From a virus: a DNA stretch of 37,438 nucleotides. The stretch lies in the UHGV virus genome UHGV-0041833; one strand, given 5' to 3'. The notes beneath the pieces were generated by a model. It was not told the origin of the DNA. It ran no database searches and saw only the letters and a list, made by a program, of their open reading frames with translations. Shown here piece by piece: positions 8,582 to 37,438 of the stretch. The position numbers and the translations under genes are program-made. Position 1 is the stretch's first letter. Every line of letters starts with the position of its first letter.

Positions 8582-9145
8582 ATGAGGCTAATCGTGGGTA
8601 AGCATCACTGGAAAATAGAAAAACAGCCTGAGTGGTACGTGAAAGCTGTCAGAAAAACGATCGCGGCGTTGCCGGGTGGTTACGCTGAAGCGGCTGACTG
8701 GCTCGATGTAACAGAAAACGCTTTATTCAACCGCCTTCGTGCAGATGGCGATCAGATTTTCCCGCTGGGATGGGCAATGGTTTTACAGCGTGCTGGTGGC
8801 ACTCACTTCATTGCTGATGCTGTGGCGCAGTCTGCAAATGGCGTCTTTGTGTCTCTTCCTGACGTCGAGGATGTGGACAACGCCGATATCAACCAACGCC
8901 TGCTGGAGGTCATTGAACAGATCGGCAGTTATTCAAAACAGATTCGTTCAGCAATTGAAGACGGTGTAGTGGAACCGCATGAGAAGACAGCAATTAACGA
9001 TGAGCTGTACCTCTCAATTTCGAAGCTGCAGGAGCATGCAGCACTGGTCTACAAAATCTTTTGCGTTTCAGAAAGTAGTGACGCCCGCGAGTGTGCAGCT
9101 CCGGGCGCCGTGGCGTGTCGTGACTGTGGAGAAACTAACGCATGA
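8582..9145 (+). CDS. CII-like regulatory protein (phage 186 CII / CP76-YdaT-type)
   Basis: 187-aa ORF directly after cro; composition and layout resemble 186-type CII proteins; C-terminal extent uncertain because of overlapping frames. Confidence 0.45.
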
Positions 9146-9500: not shown

Positions 9501-10475
9501 ATTAACCGGCTATGTATGGGATGGTTGCGCTGCGTCAGGCATGAAGTTATCCAGCGTGGCAATTATGGCCCGCCTGGCTGATTTCAGTAATGACGAAGGT
9601 GTGTGCTGGCCATCAATTGAAACCATTGCCCGCCAGATTGGCGCGGGGATGAGTACCGTCAGAACGGCTATCGCACGGCTGGAAGCAGAAGGCTGGTTAA
9701 CGCGTAAGGCGCGTCGCCAGGGTAACCGCAATGCGTCGAATGTTTATCAGCTTAACGTTGCGAAGCTTCAGGCAGCGGCATTTTCTCAACTGTCAGATTC
9801 TGACCCGTCAAAATCTGACGCATCAAAATCTGCCCCGTCAAAATTTGATGCGTCGAAATCTGGCAAAAAAGCGGGTTTTCACCCGTCAGAATCTGGCGGG
9901 GATCCGTCAGTAAAATCAAAACATGATCCGTCAGATAAAAAAACTTCTCGTCCNNNNNNNNNNNNNNNNNNNNNNNNNNNNNNNNNNNNNCTCGTCCGGA
10001 CGCTTCGCAACCGGACACGCAGACGGCTGAACAGGAGTTTTTAACTCGCCATCCTGATGCTGTTGTATTCAGCCCTAAAAAGCGCCAGTGGGGAACGCAG
10101 GATGATTTGACCTGCGCACAGTGGCTCTGGAAAAAAATCATCGCCCTGTACGAGCAGGCTGCCGAATGTGACGGCGAGGTGGTTCGTCCCAAAGAACCGA
10201 ACTGGACAGCCTGGGCAAACGAAATTCGCCTGATGTGTGTGCAGGATGGTCGTACTCACAAACAAATCTGCGAGATGTACAGCCGCGTCAGCCGCGATCC
10301 GTTCTGGTGCCGTAACGTGCTCAGCCCGTCGAAGCTGCGGGAAAAATGGGATGAGCTTTCCCTGCGCTTATCGCCGTCCGTAAGTACGTACACCGAAAAA
10401 CGCGAGGACCCGTACTTCAAAGCCAGTTACGACAACGTGGACTACAGCCAGATCCCGGCAGGATTCAGGGGGTGA
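9490..10475 (+). CDS. Replication initiator (N-terminal HTH, internal origin iterons, DnaT-like C-terminal domain); interrupted by an N-run
   Basis: N-terminal winged-helix region; iteron-encoded repeat peptide DPSKSDASKSAPSKFDASKS; C-terminus ends YSQIPAGFRG like primosomal protein DnaT; both halves come into one frame if the N-run plus the 7-nt flanking duplicate are collapsed. Confidence 0.7.
9791..9946. repeat. Origin-like iteron array inside the replication gene, followed by an A-rich tract
   Basis: At least 6 direct repeats of about 15 bp with core CGTCA(A/G)AATCTG, then gataaaaaaac. Confidence 0.6.
9954..9990. other. Assembly gap (37 N) flanked by duplicated ctcgtcc
   Basis: N-run; identical 7-mer on both sides; collapsing restores the reading frame. 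Confidence 0.8.
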
Positions 10476-23749: not shown

Positions 23750-23799
23750 NNNNNNNNNNNNNNNNNNNNNNNNNNNNNNNNNNNNNNNNNNNNNNNNNN
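23750..23799. other. Assembly gap (50 N) interrupting a GC-rich hairpin after the capsid gene
   Basis: Left flank cagggg and right flank cgcggaaccgcgccccctg are complementary halves of a strong stem-loop. Confidence 0.7.
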
Positions 23800-24771: not shown

Positions 24772-25252
24772 TTTTCAGCAGCCCGCGGAGATGCGCTTTA
24801 ACCGCGCCCGTGTCCGGCGGGCGTTTGTCACGATTGGTCAGCGTCATATGCGTGATGCCCGTCGGCTGGTGATGCGCCGTGCGCGGTCGGCACCGGGTGA
24901 AAACCCCGGTTATCAGACCGGACGCCTGGCTCGTTCGATTGGTTACATGGTACCCAGAGCCAGTAAACATCGCCCTGGTTTTATGGCACGTATAGCCCCT
25001 AACCAGCGTAATGGAGAGGGAAACCGCCGTATCACCGGTGATTTTTATCCGGCTTTTTTGTTCTATGGCGTGAGGCGAGGGGCAAAGCGTCGTCGCAGCC
25101 ATCATCGTGGTGCATCCGGTGGCAGCGGCTGGCGACTGGCTCCACGTAATAACTTTATGGTGGAAACGCTTGAAAAGAACCGCAGCTGGACACGCTATTT
25201 TCTGGCGCGGGAATTACGTAAATCACTGAAGCCGGAGCGACGACGCAGATGA
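24746..25252 (+). CDS. HK97 gp10-like tail-completion/neck protein
   Basis: 168 aa; GGAGG SD; basic C-terminus. Confidence 0.55.
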   Translation: MTTSFLHVDFQQPAEMRFNRARVRRAFVTIGQRHMRDARRLVMRRARSAPGENPGYQTGRLARSIGYMVPRASKHRPGFMARIAPNQRNGEGNRRITGDFYPAFLFYGVRRGAKRRRSHHRGASGGSGWRLAPRNNFMVETLEKNRSWTRYFLARELRKSLKPERRRR

Positions 25253-33508: not shown

Positions 33509-34572
33509 ATTTCAGCGCCCGACGCTGGCAGAAAATATCAGTATGCTCCGTAACGATTTATTCGCCAGGCTGGACGTCAGCGACACGCTCCGGCGCATGG
33601 ATGAAGACGTGCGGGCAAAGGTGTATGCGGCGGCGCTGCATACGGTTTACGGGTACATCGATTATCTGGCAATGAACATGCTGCCTGACCTGTGCGATGA
33701 GTCCTGGCTGGCGCGACATGCTGCGATGAAACGGTGTCCGCGCAAGGGGGCCACGACTGCCAGCGGGTATATGCGCTGGGAAGGCGTCAGCGATGGCCTG
33801 AAGGTGACCGCCGGGAGTGTTATTCAGCGCGATGACCTGATTCAGTACACGGCAACTGCCGATGCAACCAGCGCCGGTGGTGTCCTGCGCGTGCCGATCG
33901 CCTGCTCAAGTGCAGGCGCGGTCNNNNNNNNNNGGCGCGGTCGGTAACGCTGACGACGGTACGTCATTAATCCTGGTCACGCCGGTTAATGGTCTGCCGT
34001 CTTCCGGCGTGGCAGACACTCTGACAGGTGGATTTGATACTGAAGAGCTGGAAACGTGGCGCGCCCGCGTCATTGAGCGGTATTACTGGACGCCTCAGGG
34101 CGGGGCTGACGGGGACTATGTTGTCTGGGCTAAAGAATTGCCCGGCATTACCCGCGCATGGGCATACCGTCACTGGATGGGAACGGGGACTGTCGGTGTG
34201 ATGATTGCCAGCAGTGACCTGATTAATCCCATTCCGGAAGAATCAACGGAAACGGCGGCAAGACAACATATCGGGCCACTGGCCCCGGTGGCAGGCTCTG
34301 ATTTGTATGTGTTCAGGCCGGTGGCGCATACGGTGGATTTTCATATCCGTGTGACGCCGGATACACCGGAAATACGGGCTGCCATCACCGCGGAGTTGCG
34401 TTCGTTCCTGCTGCGTGATGGTTATCCGCAGGGAGAACTGAAGGTGTCGCGTATCAGTGAAGCGATTTCCGGTGCGAACGGGGAATACAGCCATCAATTG
34501 CTTGCACCGGCGGAAAATATCTCCATTGCAAAAAATGAACTGGCGGTTCTGGGGACGATTTCATGGGCGTGA
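33495..34572 (+). CDS. Baseplate J-like protein (Mu gp47), split in the ORF track by an assembly gap
   Basis: Track ORFs 33495..33947 and 33862..34572 come into one frame if the 10-N run and the 9-nt duplicate ggcgcggtc are collapsed. Confidence 0.7.
33924..33933. other. Assembly gap (10 N) flanked by duplicated ggcgcggtc
   Basis: Direct reading. Confidence 0.8.
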
Positions 34573-35180
34573 CAAACGATGATTACATCCGTCTGTTGTC
34601 GGCACTGCTGCCGCCCGGTCCGGCGTGGTCAGCCAGCGATCCGGCGATTGCCGGTGCGGCACAGTCATTAACCCGCGTTCATCAGCGTGCGGATGCCCTG
34701 ATGCGGGAGCTGGATCCGCGCACCACCACCGAACTGATAAATCGCTGGGAGCGTCTGTGCGGCCTGCCGGATGAATGTATTCCCGCAGGAACACAGACCC
34801 TTCGCCAGCGTCAGCAACGACTGGATGCGAAGGTTAACCTGGCGGGCGGCATCAATGAGGATTTTTACCTTGCACAGCTTGCTGCCCTGGGCAGACCAGA
34901 CGCCACCATCACGCGATACGACAAAAGCACGTTCACCTGCTCATCGGCCTGTACTGACGCGGTGAATGCGCCGGAATGGCGGTATTACTGGCAGGGCAAC
35001 AAANNNNNNNNNNGGTATTACTGGCAGGTCAACATGCCAGCCGCCACCAACAGCACCTGGATGACATGTGGCGATCCCTGTGATTCCGCGCTGCGTATCT
35101 GGGGCGACACCGTCGTCGAATGTGTGCTTAACAAACTCTGCCCTTCGCATACCTACGTAATTTTTAAATATCCGGAGTAA
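34563..35180 (+). CDS. Tail protein (Mu gp48 / DUF2313-like)
   Basis: 205 aa; N-terminus [18 protein letters not shown] typical of DUF2313 tail proteins; contains a 10-N gap flanked by an imperfect 23-nt duplication. Confidence 0.65.
35004..35013. other. Assembly gap (10 N) flanked by near-duplicate ggtattactggcagg(g/t)caaca
   Basis: Direct reading. Confidence 0.8.
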
Positions 35181-35183
35181 TCC

Positions 35184-35927
35184 ATGCATCGTATAGACAC
35201 GAAAACCGCGCAGAAGGATAAGTTCGGCGCGGGTAAGAACGGTTTTACCCGTGGTAACCCCCAGACAGGCACGCCTGCCACCGATCTGGATGATGAGTAC
35301 TTTGACATGTTGCAGGAAGAACTCTGCAGCGTGGTGGAGGCATCCGGTGCCAGTCTGGAGAAGGCGCGGCACGACCAGCTGCTTACCGCGCTTCGTGCGC
35401 TGCTGTTAAGCCGCAAGAATCCGTTTAGCGATATCAAATCGGACGGCACGGTGAAAACGGCTCTCGAAAACCTTGGTTTGGGAGAAGGCTCTGCATTACC
35501 TGTTGGTGTGCCTGTTCCATGGCCTTCAGCCACACCGCCAACAGGCTGGCTGAAATGCAACGGTGCGGCTTTTTCTGCTGAAGAATACCCGGAACTGGCA
35601 AAGGCTTATCCGACAAATAAATTGCCTGATTTACGTGGTGAGTTTATTCGTGGCTGGGATGATGGGCGCGGCGTTGATTCAAGGCGTGCGGTGCTGTCAA
35701 CACAAGAGCCAACTGTAGGTACTTTTTATGTGGAGCTAGCTATCATCTCGGGAACTTTGAGCGGCTCAGGTGCTAAATTTACCGATTCAGTAGGGATTGG
35801 ATCAACCAGTAGTAACATTACCGTTAGCAACGGTAATGACCAGTCCGTGTCGGGTACAGTGGCCGTTAACCCCGTCGATACCCGTCCACGCAACATTGCA
35901 TTTAACTATATCGTGAGAGCAGCATAA
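35184..35927 (+). CDS. Tail fibre protein (constant N-terminal part fused to variable part Sv of the invertible segment)
   Basis: 247 aa; conserved N-terminus ([26 protein letters not shown]); crossover site lies at codons 93..101 (ALENLGLGE). Confidence 0.8.
35461..35486. other. Left crossover site of invertible segment (Hin/Gin/Pin-type 26-bp site)
   Basis: ctctcgaaaacc tt ggtttgggagaa; fits the hix/gix half-site pattern ..TC..AAACC NN GGTTT..GA.AA recalled from memory. Confidence 0.7.
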
Positions 35928-36529
35928 TGGATAAAGCAATATTAAATAGTGGACTTGTTGCTACAAAGGCAGGGGATATTACCGTTTATAACTATGATGG
36001 TGAAACTCGGGAATATATTTCCACTTCAAGTGAATATCTTGCCGTTGGTGTTGGTATCCCGGCATATTCCTGTCTGGATGCACCAGGTATACATAAGGCG
36101 GGTTATGCTATCTGTCGTTCTGTGAATTTAAATTCATGGGAATATGTGCCAGACCATCGCGGTGAAATCGTCTATAACACCGAAACGGGAGAATCAAAAC
36201 AAATCACAGCACCGGGTGATTACCCCGAAAATACAACCACTATTGCCCCATTAACGCCATACGATAAATGGGATGGTGAGAAATGGGTGACCGATACTGA
36301 GGCACAGCATAGCGCCGCAGTAGACGCGGCAGAAGCACAGCGTCAGTCACTGATTGATGCTGCAATGGCTTCCATCGGTCTGATTCAGCTGAAATTACAG
36401 GCCGGACGGAAGCTGATGCAGGCAGAAACAACCCGGCTTAACGCTGTGCTGGATTACATTGACGCGGTGACGGCAACAAATACCAGCACAGCGCCGGATG
36501 TCATCTGGCCTGAACTGCCGGAGGCGTAG
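35927..36529 (+). CDS. Tail fibre assembly protein (Tfa, forward orientation)
   Basis: 200 aa; ATAATG overlap with fibre gene; C-terminal Tfa signature (LDYIDAV...TAPDVIWPELPEA). Confidence 0.75.
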   Translation: MDKAILNSGLVATKAGDITVYNYDGETREYISTSSEYLAVGVGIPAYSCLDAPGIHKAGYAICRSVNLNSWEYVPDHRGEIVYNTETGESKQITAPGDYPENTTTIAPLTPYDKWDGEKWVTDTEAQHSAAVDAAEAQRQSLIDAAMASIGLIQLKLQAGRKLMQAETTRLNAVLDYIDAVTATNTSTAPDVIWPELPEA

Positions 36530-36944
36530 GCCATTCAATATCTGGCGCACAGGAAGTATCGACCAGTTCCAGTGCGTCCAGATAATCCAGCCACGAATTA
36601 TATTGCGCCAGTTCCTCGCCTTTCAGACGACCAATAGCAGCTTTGCCAGGCCACTGATGGGTATTGATGTAGGTATTGACTTCTGAAACCAAAGATATTT
36701 TTTTCATTTCAGCCGTCAACACCTCATCCTCTTTTGAAGGGGGTGGGGAATTAATCCATACTGGCCGTCCTGAACTGTCAGCGCCAATTTCTTTCCCTTC
36801 TGGATGCAGACCAAGAAATTGCTCATATGTTTCTCTGGTAATTTCAATAACATCATCAGGAAGCGTTCCCGCATCCTCATATTCTGGAAACAATTCTTGC
36901 AGATAAAAACTTTTACTTCCGGGTGAAAAGAATACTGAGTTCAT
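36501..36944 (-). CDS. Tail fibre assembly protein (Tfa', inverted orientation)
   Basis: 147 aa; C-terminal WLDYLDALELVDTSCAPDIEWPTPP; convergent with the forward tfa. Confidence 0.75.
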   Translation of the reverse strand: MNSVFFSPGSKSFYLQELFPEYEDAGTLPDDVIEITRETYEQFLGLHPEGKEIGADSSGRPVWINSPPPSKEDEVLTAEMKKISLVSEVNTYINTHQWPGKAAIGRLKGEELAQYNSWLDYLDALELVDTSCAPDIEWPTPPAVQAR

Positions 36945-36946
36945 TA

Positions 36947-37438
36947 TTACCGTCCAATGATTAACGCTGAGACGCTGGTATCTGAAGGAAAGGCTGCATT
37001 CAGTGGTTTGTCGACTTTGAACACAATCGTATTATTCCCCCTGACAGCGGCAAAAGAACAAACCGCCGTCGCGTATGAACCTGTAATATTACTGGATACA
37101 CCACCATAAGCTGTTGTTGATACCAGAGGGATAACGCCCAGCACCTTATTAGGAAATACAAAGGGCAATGTGGCTGTGGCAATATAAGACTTATTAGAAC
37201 CTGTGATGGCATAAGCATTATCAGTCATTCCATTCATCGCCACTGGGCCGCTTATACTTACAGTAACCATCTGAATGATTAGCCCGTCAGGTTGACGAAT
37301 CACAAAATTTCCATTGCCACCAGTAACCGTCCAGAAAGACATATCAGGGATTTGGTTTTCCCCGTTGCCCACATTCCGTTTTGCCGCTTCTCCCAAACCA
37401 ACGTTTATGAAAATGCAGAAATAACGAGCAAATGGCAT
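36947..37438 (-). CDS. Alternative tail-fibre variable part (Sv') read from the right crossover site
   Basis: Minus-strand ORF; codons for GLGE at 37399..37388 coincide with the right crossover site and are in the same frame as GLGE in the forward fibre; expressed only after inversion. Confidence 0.65.
   Translation of the reverse strand: MPFARYFCIFINVGLGEAAKRNVGNGENQIPDMSFWTVTGGNGNFVIRQPDGLIIQMVTVSISGPVAMNGMTDNAYAITGSNKSYIATATLPFVFPNKVLGVIPLVSTTAYGGVSSNITGSYATAVCSFAAVRGNNTIVFKVDKPLNAAFPSDTSVSALIIGR
37388..37413. other. Right crossover site of invertible segment (inverted copy of the left site)
   Basis: Plus strand ttctcccaaacc aa cgtttatgaaaa; 13 nt (ggtttgggagaag) form a perfect inverted repeat with 35475..35487. 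Confidence 0.7.

Follow-up and report, generated by a model that had tools for sequence, protein, structure and literature searches.

The closest described relative of the element considered here is the P segment of e14, a defective prophage of Escherichia coli K-12, in which two opposed tail-fibre cassettes lie beside an invertase gene (stfP-tfaP / tfaE-stfE-pinE). The e14 segment spans 1,797 bp between repeats TTGGTTTGGGAGAAGG and is inverted by PinE and, in trans, by PinQ and PinR of other cryptic prophages (PMC12529663), and its orientation is heterogeneous within K-12 cultures (PMC4272514). Such cross-action is also found elsewhere in the family, with Fin acting on the Hin segment and PinE on the G segment of phage Mu (PMC12529663 and references cited there). 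Invertases of the Din family require a Fis-bound enhancer in cis, which in the case of Hin is a stretch of about 60 bp in the part of the invertase gene that codes for the N-terminus, some 100 bp away from hixL, and has ATTTA/TAATG between its Fis sites (PMC2724282, PMC3798978). We investigated a tail-fibre segment of this kind near the right end of a viral DNA of 37,438 nucleotides, UHGV virus genome UHGV-0041833, the whole of which is called the window below. Our analysis makes it likely that the segment belongs to the Pin/Gin/Hin family and is of the e14 P-segment type, that its pin gene in cis has been destroyed, and that it is nevertheless still a substrate for invertases acting in trans.

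The strongest inverted repeat in positions 34500-37438 pairs 35468-35487 with 37387-37406 (20 nt, 95% complementary, with the perfect 13-mer GGTTTGGGAGAAG inside). A search of the whole window with this 20-mer, allowing up to 3 mismatches, recovered these two copies only, as against 0 matches in 100 shuffles, and this count together with the identity of the sites with those of e14 rules out a chance match as the origin of the repeat. The two arms mark a pair of imperfectly palindromic sites of about 26 bp, which are inverted with respect to each other and have the same central dinucleotide. Reverse-complemented, the right site reads TTTTCATAAACG-TT-GGTTTGGGAGAA; hence both inverted sites have a TT core, and their central dinucleotides are compatible with inversion by a serine invertase. 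The two sites agree in all 26 bp with those of the e14 P segment of K-12 MG1655, while a by-eye reading of the left site against Mu gixL gave 18 of 26 identical positions and the right site aligned without gaps to Mu gixR. Scanning the window with the relaxed core pattern AAACCNNGGTTT yielded no further credible site. We also considered a multi-site shufflon, which could be ruled out as there are two sites only in the window and a third AAACCNNGGTTT-like match, at 24901, is within chance expectation. The presence of only two sites points to a two-state switch. The features of the locus are as follows (coordinates, strand, description):

35474-37400, no strand: invertible segment of 1,927 bp, measured between the two core dinucleotides; occurs exactly inverted in natural genomes
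35461-35486, no strand: left 26-bp pix-type crossover site, CTCTCGAAAACC TT GGTTTGGGAGAA, core TT at 35473-35474, equal to the e14 left site
37388-37413, no strand: right 26-bp crossover site, TTCTCCCAAACC AA CGTTTATGAAAA, core AA at 37400-37401, equal to the e14 right site
35184-35473, plus: constant N-terminal fibre part outside the segment, 96 codons and part of codon 97, common to both orientations and near-identical to the 5' part of K-12 e14 ycfK/stfP
35184-35927, plus: fibre gene in the window orientation, 247 aa, constant part joined to a StfE-like variable part (Pfam phage tail Collar, E=1e-15)
35927-36529, plus: TfaE-type tail-fibre assembly chaperone for the expressed tip (Pfam Caudo_TAP, E=4e-30; 91% identical to K-12 TfaE)
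36501-36944, minus: alternative, TfaP-like chaperone, silent in the window orientation (Pfam Caudo_TAP, E=6e-28; 54% identical to K-12 TfaP)
36947-37399, minus: alternative variable C-terminal fibre part, silent in the window orientation (weak Gp53-like_C match, just under the cut-off)
37414-37438, no strand: first part of the spacer that separates the right site from the pin start codon (compare SF-166 L001 8806-8995, below)
34563-35180, plus: ymfQ / Mu gp48-like baseplate gene, the direct upstream neighbour of the fibre gene (Pfam Phage_Mu_Gp48, E=7e-25; named ymfQ in strain SF-166)

The left site falls in frame within the 247-aa open reading frame (ORF) 35184-35927, whose codon L97, in ...ALENLGLGE, holds the crossover point, and the right site keeps this frame close to the beginning of the minus-strand ORF 36947-37438 (...NVGLGEAAK...), which, as listed, extends to an ATG at 37438, outside the segment. 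Inverting 35474-37400 in silico produced an in-frame fusion of 247 aa, in which the constant 96 residues are followed by the alternative C-terminus, and in genomes with the flipped orientation this alternative fusion is annotated as a gene. The locus thus has the layout of a fibre switch: a constant N-terminus outside the segment, two opposed tips each with a chaperone, and an in-frame product in both states. Much of this had been proposed in an earlier reading of the DNA from its letters and ORFs alone (the sequence-only reading), and it stands up well. The assignment to Hin/Gin/Pin-type invertible fibre segments is borne out by the identity of the sites with those of e14 P, which invert experimentally (PMC12529663, PMC4272514), and the comparison with gix and pix that it recommended gave the matches described above. 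The two 26-bp sites sharing a perfect 13-bp inverted repeat are real, the repeat being longer than it had stated; the placement of both sites in the same frame could be read from the ORFs; the forward variable part plus tfa facing an inverted tfa plus alternative part correspond to four ORFs with Pfam matches as described; and the simulated inversion did join the constant 96 residues to the alternative C-terminus.

The expressed tip is identical to the C-terminal part of K-12 StfE through the collar region and diverges distally (60% identity overall), while the silent tip has no similarity to K-12 StfP beyond the GLGE motif. The two tips of the window are also unrelated in sequence to each other, one having a Collar domain and the other a weak Gp53-like_C match, which would fit the recognition of different receptors. 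By analogy with known systems, the segment may act as a phage host-range switch.

At the right edge of the window the resemblance to e14 becomes partial. Genomes identical to the window have the pin start codon 67 bp away from the centre of the site, at a point 30 bp beyond the window's end, and the sequence-only reading, in expecting a serine invertase gene just beyond the right edge, had therefore placed it correctly. What stands there is a stump of 41 codons, after which comes DUF262, a gene unrelated to it. In strain SF-166, whose fibre region is 100% identical to the window, RefSeq records a recombinase pseudogene of 123 bp at the pin position; read directly, it is MLIGYVRVSTNDQNTDLQRNALNCAGCELIFEDKISGTKSE, then a T and a stop. 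The remnant matches the start of K-12 pinE in 41 of 41 residues and 119 of 123 nucleotides, and would occupy virtual coordinates of about 37468-37590, including the enhancer-equivalent region. Homology to pin stops at about position 8995 of the SF-166 locus (L001), approximately 190 bp from the site centre, and is followed by a DUF262 (GmrSD-like) gene, which lies on the opposite strand with its 3' end first. Codons 1-41 are all that genomes identical to the window hold of an adjacent serine invertase, and the SF-166 annotation lists no other recombinase within the prophage besides the tyrosine integrase. The stump keeps the catalytic serine; judged from the known domain structure of serine invertases, its loss of the remaining catalytic domain, the oligomerisation helix and the DNA-binding domain should leave it unable to act. 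The junction between the remnant and DUF262 was found in 298 of 5,426 complete E. coli genomes, and its being common to these genomes at identities down to about 96% suggests one old event.

A self-contained functional switch, with its own invertase just past the window as in K-12 e14 or Mu, would account for the pin start codon and first 41 codons at exactly the expected place, and genomes of this build do exist: SL124 has the same silent cassette next to an intact pinE, and in the O157:H7 genomes that carry an intact pinE its first 123 bp and the spacer are 100% identical to the remnant. All inspected genomes with a 100% match to the window, however, carry the cut-down pin and then DUF262. 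Positions 1-25000 of the window are likewise 100% identical in SF-166, PA45B, SCU-122 and others, the three named strains all holding the DUF262 gene, whereas genomes with an intact pinE match the fibre region less well (98.3% or lower). We therefore consider it very improbable that the window comes from a prophage with a working invertase of its own.

In spite of the truncation, the segment occurs in both orientations. The simulated flipped fusion gene was covered to at least 80% in one place in 39 genomes, and 23 of the 30 listed are 99.7-100% identical to it. The left junction in natural flipped genomes is 100% identical to the simulated flip, and the right junction in the flipped genomes GN06489, IHE3034 and PMV-1 is exactly as simulated (read directly in GN06489); all three have the same pin remnant and DUF262 gene. 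Junction-spanning queries placed the cut-down pin with the window orientation in 78 genomes and with the flipped orientation in 24, these being counts between genomes. The sequence-only reading had named the absence of a downstream invertase, together with a single orientation ever being observed, as speaking against it: the first half agrees with what was found, there being no functional invertase downstream, and the second does not, given these 78 forward and 24 flipped genomes.

A four-gamete test on the alignment, applied to a single-nucleotide polymorphism (SNP) at 35297 (G/C) in the constant region outside the segment, returned all four combinations of allele and orientation: G/forward in the window and SF-166, C/forward in NU14, G/flipped in GN06489 and C/flipped in IHE3034. 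Furthermore, the flipped GN06489, GN06758 and GN04275 are almost identical to the window over 25 kb. The same truncation with both orientations, the four SNP combinations and the near-identical prophages of opposite orientation together imply at least two changes of orientation after the truncation, or equivalent recombination between prophage variants. Most likely, inversion continued after the loss of pin by means of invertases supplied in trans.

The mechanism that we propose can be outlined in a few steps. A serine invertase would cut both 26-bp sites at the central TT/AA and rotate the 1,927-bp segment, so that the constant 96-codon N-terminus is joined either to the StfE-like collar tip served by the TfaE-type chaperone, as in the window, or to the unrelated tip served by the TfaP-like chaperone. 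With pin in cis lost from the prophage lineage (codons 1-41 left and DUF262 thereafter), the switch would have become unable to flip itself. Both sites are intact, and the remnant retains the stretch that matches the Fis-bound enhancer of hin and gin, so that related invertases of other prophages could act on the segment in trans. If the segment is such a substrate, the occurrence of both orientations among near-identical prophages with the same truncation is explained. In strains with no such invertase the segment would presumably be frozen, probably in the state in which it was when the last helper invertase was lost.

Two sets of observations bear on the parts of this mechanism. Firstly, the pin remnant aligns without gaps to K-12 pinE and to Mu gixR-gin; conservation is highest in a stretch (GTGTCAACAAATGACCAGAACACAGATCTACAACGTAATGCGCTGAACTGTGCAGGATGCGAG...) some 90-150 bp away from the centre of the site, within the retained 123 bp, and a TAATG lies at about 124-128 bp from that centre. 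The enhancer-equivalent stretch is at the distance from the site reported for Hin (PMC3798978, PMC2724282), and the enhancer is probably intact in the remnant. Secondly, a plausible helper is present in N31, a carrier of the flipped orientation, in the form of a P2-like prophage with a full-length invertase of 199 aa, 82% identical to PinE, and five sites AAACGTTGGTTTGGGGGAA with a TT core, one base off the right site of the window. The N31 region itself (L009 1819-4816), with its five Pin-type sites, several short cassettes annotated as 'phage tail protein' on both strands and the 199-aa invertase, is a multi-cassette fibre shufflon.

Several points weigh against this interpretation: 1) the DNA past 37438 lies outside the window, and the truncation is deduced from genomes identical to it. 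2) In a few genomes, e.g. SL124 (98.3% identity), the same silent cassette does sit beside an intact pinE. 3) The chromosomes of the flipped carriers GN06489, avian pathogenic E. coli (APEC) O1 and PMV-1 gave no pin-family gene body by blastn. 4) No invertase was found in the first 50 of the 107 kb of one GN06489 plasmid. 5) Among the listed carriers there is no clear link between orientation and a second pin-like locus, a second place being present in 8 of 17 forward and 6 of 9 flipped ones; this was scored with a chimeric DUF262+pinE query as places per record, a measure that misses plasmids and highly divergent invertases, and only in N31 was it checked what the second place is.

The many carrier chromosomes in which blastn detects no pin-family gene, and the lack of a clear link to a second locus, are what one would expect of a fossil that inverts nowhere, its two orientations being inherited states that reached different genomes through horizontal transfer or through recombination among prophage variants, or having arisen by rare RecA-dependent recombination between the 20-bp repeats. 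Homologous exchange within the repeat would also give precise junctions. However, RecA acts very poorly on a repeat of 20 bp that has one mismatch. The same truncation junction is moreover found with both orientations and with all four combinations of SNP allele and orientation, and opposite orientations occur in prophages differing by a few bases in 25 kb. Identical sites have also been inverted in trans experimentally by heterologous Pin-family enzymes (PMC12529663). This alternative is less economical than inversion by a trans-acting invertase, and we consider it unlikely.

Going beyond trans-acting inversion as such, it is conceivable, and offered here tentatively, that the invertase-less but responsive switch is a stable and selected arrangement and not a decaying relic, with its orientation set by the invertases that P2-like, Mu-like or other prophages, resident in the same cell or entering it, supply. 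If so, the fibre tip of one phage, or a defence product like StfE2, would be controlled by the enzyme of another.

A defensive role for the locus in lysogens was considered as well. The ATG at 37438 and the leader MPFARYFCIFINV of the minus-strand ORF lie outside the segment, and are conserved in K-12 e14 and partly (ATGGCAT) even in Mu. Consequently, either tip, when facing the right site, is provided with an ORF that has a start of its own, as in e14, where StfE2 is reported to be produced from such an arrangement (PMC12529663). Were this right-side ORF, leader plus facing tip, expressed, its product might block the adsorption of other phages like the e14 StfE2, and this could be the main role of the segment in the lysogen. 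The conservation of leader and ATG with K-12 stfE is in keeping with this, as is the annotation of the right-side ORF as a gene by RefSeq in both orientations, and the analogous e14 product is reported to block adsorption of phage T2 after inversion (PMC12529663). Nevertheless, no sigma-70-like promoter emerged near the right site in a simple scan, itself not decisive either way; the window and K-12 have different tips, the silent one of the window being unrelated to StfP; and the prophage looks complete, which makes a host-range role in the virion the simpler one. Defence as the main role thus seems distinctly unlikely to us, although it is compatible with inversion in trans. Shortly past the right site, inside the coding region of the silent tip, there is a terminator-like hairpin with a T-rich tail on the minus strand at 37345-37364 (SF-166 L001 8750-8769), the only one found against 0.3 expected in the scan; it could limit read-through from outside the segment, or be due to chance.

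Comparison with the known systems places the locus more precisely. With the e14 P segment the window has in common, in addition to both 26-bp sites, the gene order (ymfQ, constant fibre part, two cassettes, pin), a near-identical constant part, a TfaE with 91% identity, the StfE-like tip as far as the collar domain and the 5' end of pin (119 of 123 nt). The prophage backbones also have the gene names ymfK, ymfT, ymfL, ymfR and ymfQ in common. The differences lie in the following: 1) pin is cut after codon 41 and followed by DUF262 in the lineage of the window, whereas e14 has pinE-mcrA. 2) The segment measures 1,927 bp in the window as against 1,797 bp in e14. 3) The second tip of the window is unrelated to StfP, with its chaperone only 54% identical to TfaP, and the distal part of the StfE-like tip has diverged. 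4) The prophage of the window is full-length and sits at ssrA, whereas e14 sits at icd.

The G segment of Mu with its Gin invertase (Sc-Sv-U / U'-Sv'-gin) has the same architecture and the same place relative to a gp48-like baseplate gene; site, spacer and invertase start align without gaps, the 5' (enhancer) region of the invertase gene is strongly conserved, and the left site matches gixL in 18 of 26 positions. In contrast to the window, Mu has a segment of about 3 kb, a constant part of about 170 codons, a TC/GA core, other tips and an intact gin. The multi-site fibre regions of P2-like prophages (e.g. in E. coli N31 and enteropathogenic E. coli E2348/69) provide near-identical half-sites (AAACGTTGGTTTGGGGGAA) with a TT core and an invertase 82% identical to PinE, and P2-like phages have cassette DNA in common with the window from exactly the crossover site onward. 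Those loci, however, contain 4-5 sites, being shufflons with more than two tips, and their invertase is intact, as opposed to two sites and no functional invertase in the window. Matches to DNA of unrelated phages (P2-like, HK106 and a P1-sized phage) start at query position 279-290, i.e. exactly at the left site, which suggests that this site is also a module boundary. The segment of the window is best described as an orphaned member of the family, of the e14 P type and closely related to Mu G, P1 C and the P2-type fibre shufflons, but without an adjacent functional invertase.

The kind of element is a textbook one, and inversion of identical sites in trans is already published. The novelty is limited to three points: a different silent tip, the loss of pin to a defence-type gene in a widespread lineage, and population-genomic evidence of later changes of orientation. 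For annotation, it follows that the two minus-strand genes are not merely 'hypothetical' but the silent half of a fibre switch, and that the fibre gene has two natural forms. The orphaned switch belongs to a widespread prophage lineage, with UTI89, NU14, IHE3034, APEC O1 and S88 among its carriers, and lends support from natural populations to a cross-talk between prophage invertases that has so far been known mainly from over-expression or from K-12 (PinQ/PinR on e14). Provided that these prophages still produce particles, which hosts they can infect would depend on the other prophages resident in the cell.

With regard to its setting, the 2,876 bp from ymfQ to the end of the window match many complete E. 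coli chromosomes at 99.9-100%, including those of SF-166, NU14, ATCC 11775 and APEC O18. The SF-166 prophage encodes an integrase, the ymfK/ymfT/ymfL regulators, lysis functions, terminase, portal, an HK97-type head and a contractile Mu-like tail with baseplate. The window has the look of a complete e14-type prophage and belongs to E. coli strains such as UTI89, NU14, IHE3034 and SF-166. The integration locus is ssrA: positions 1-131 of the window form a direct repeat (92.7% over 137 nt) of the 3'-end sequence of the ssrA transfer-messenger RNA (SF-166 L001 14671-14807), this copy sitting about 6 kb past the right edge. The two are probably the attL/attR pair, in which case the integrated element would reach past the window and take in the pin remnant, DUF262, a DinI-like pseudogene, a GIY-YIG gene and two hypothetical genes.

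The DUF262/GmrSD-like gene (SF-166 L001 9097-10986) is type IV restriction-like, replaces the 3' part of pin, and occupies the slot held by mcrA in K-12 e14. Defence cargo thus seems to gather preferentially, as at a hotspot, at the right end of e14-type prophages.

Some smaller features were noted within the locus. The convergent chaperone genes overlap by 29 bp (36501-36529), and an internal inverted repeat of 18 nt, 83% complementary (36448-36465 / 36574-36591), mirrors on opposite strands the C-terminal motif common to the two chaperones (LDYIDA / LDYLDA...WPE/WPTPP). The window also contains four runs of N, at 9954-9990, 23750-23799, 33924-33933 and 35004-35013. The last of these lies in ymfQ, and is flanked by a 21-nt near-duplicate (GGTATTACTGGCAGGGCAACA / GGTATTACTGGCAGGTCAACA, 95% identical). 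The region has 33 extra nucleotides relative to the otherwise identical SF-166, by which the ymfQ ORF is inflated from 194 to 205 aa, and the run looks like an artefact of assembly or scaffolding.

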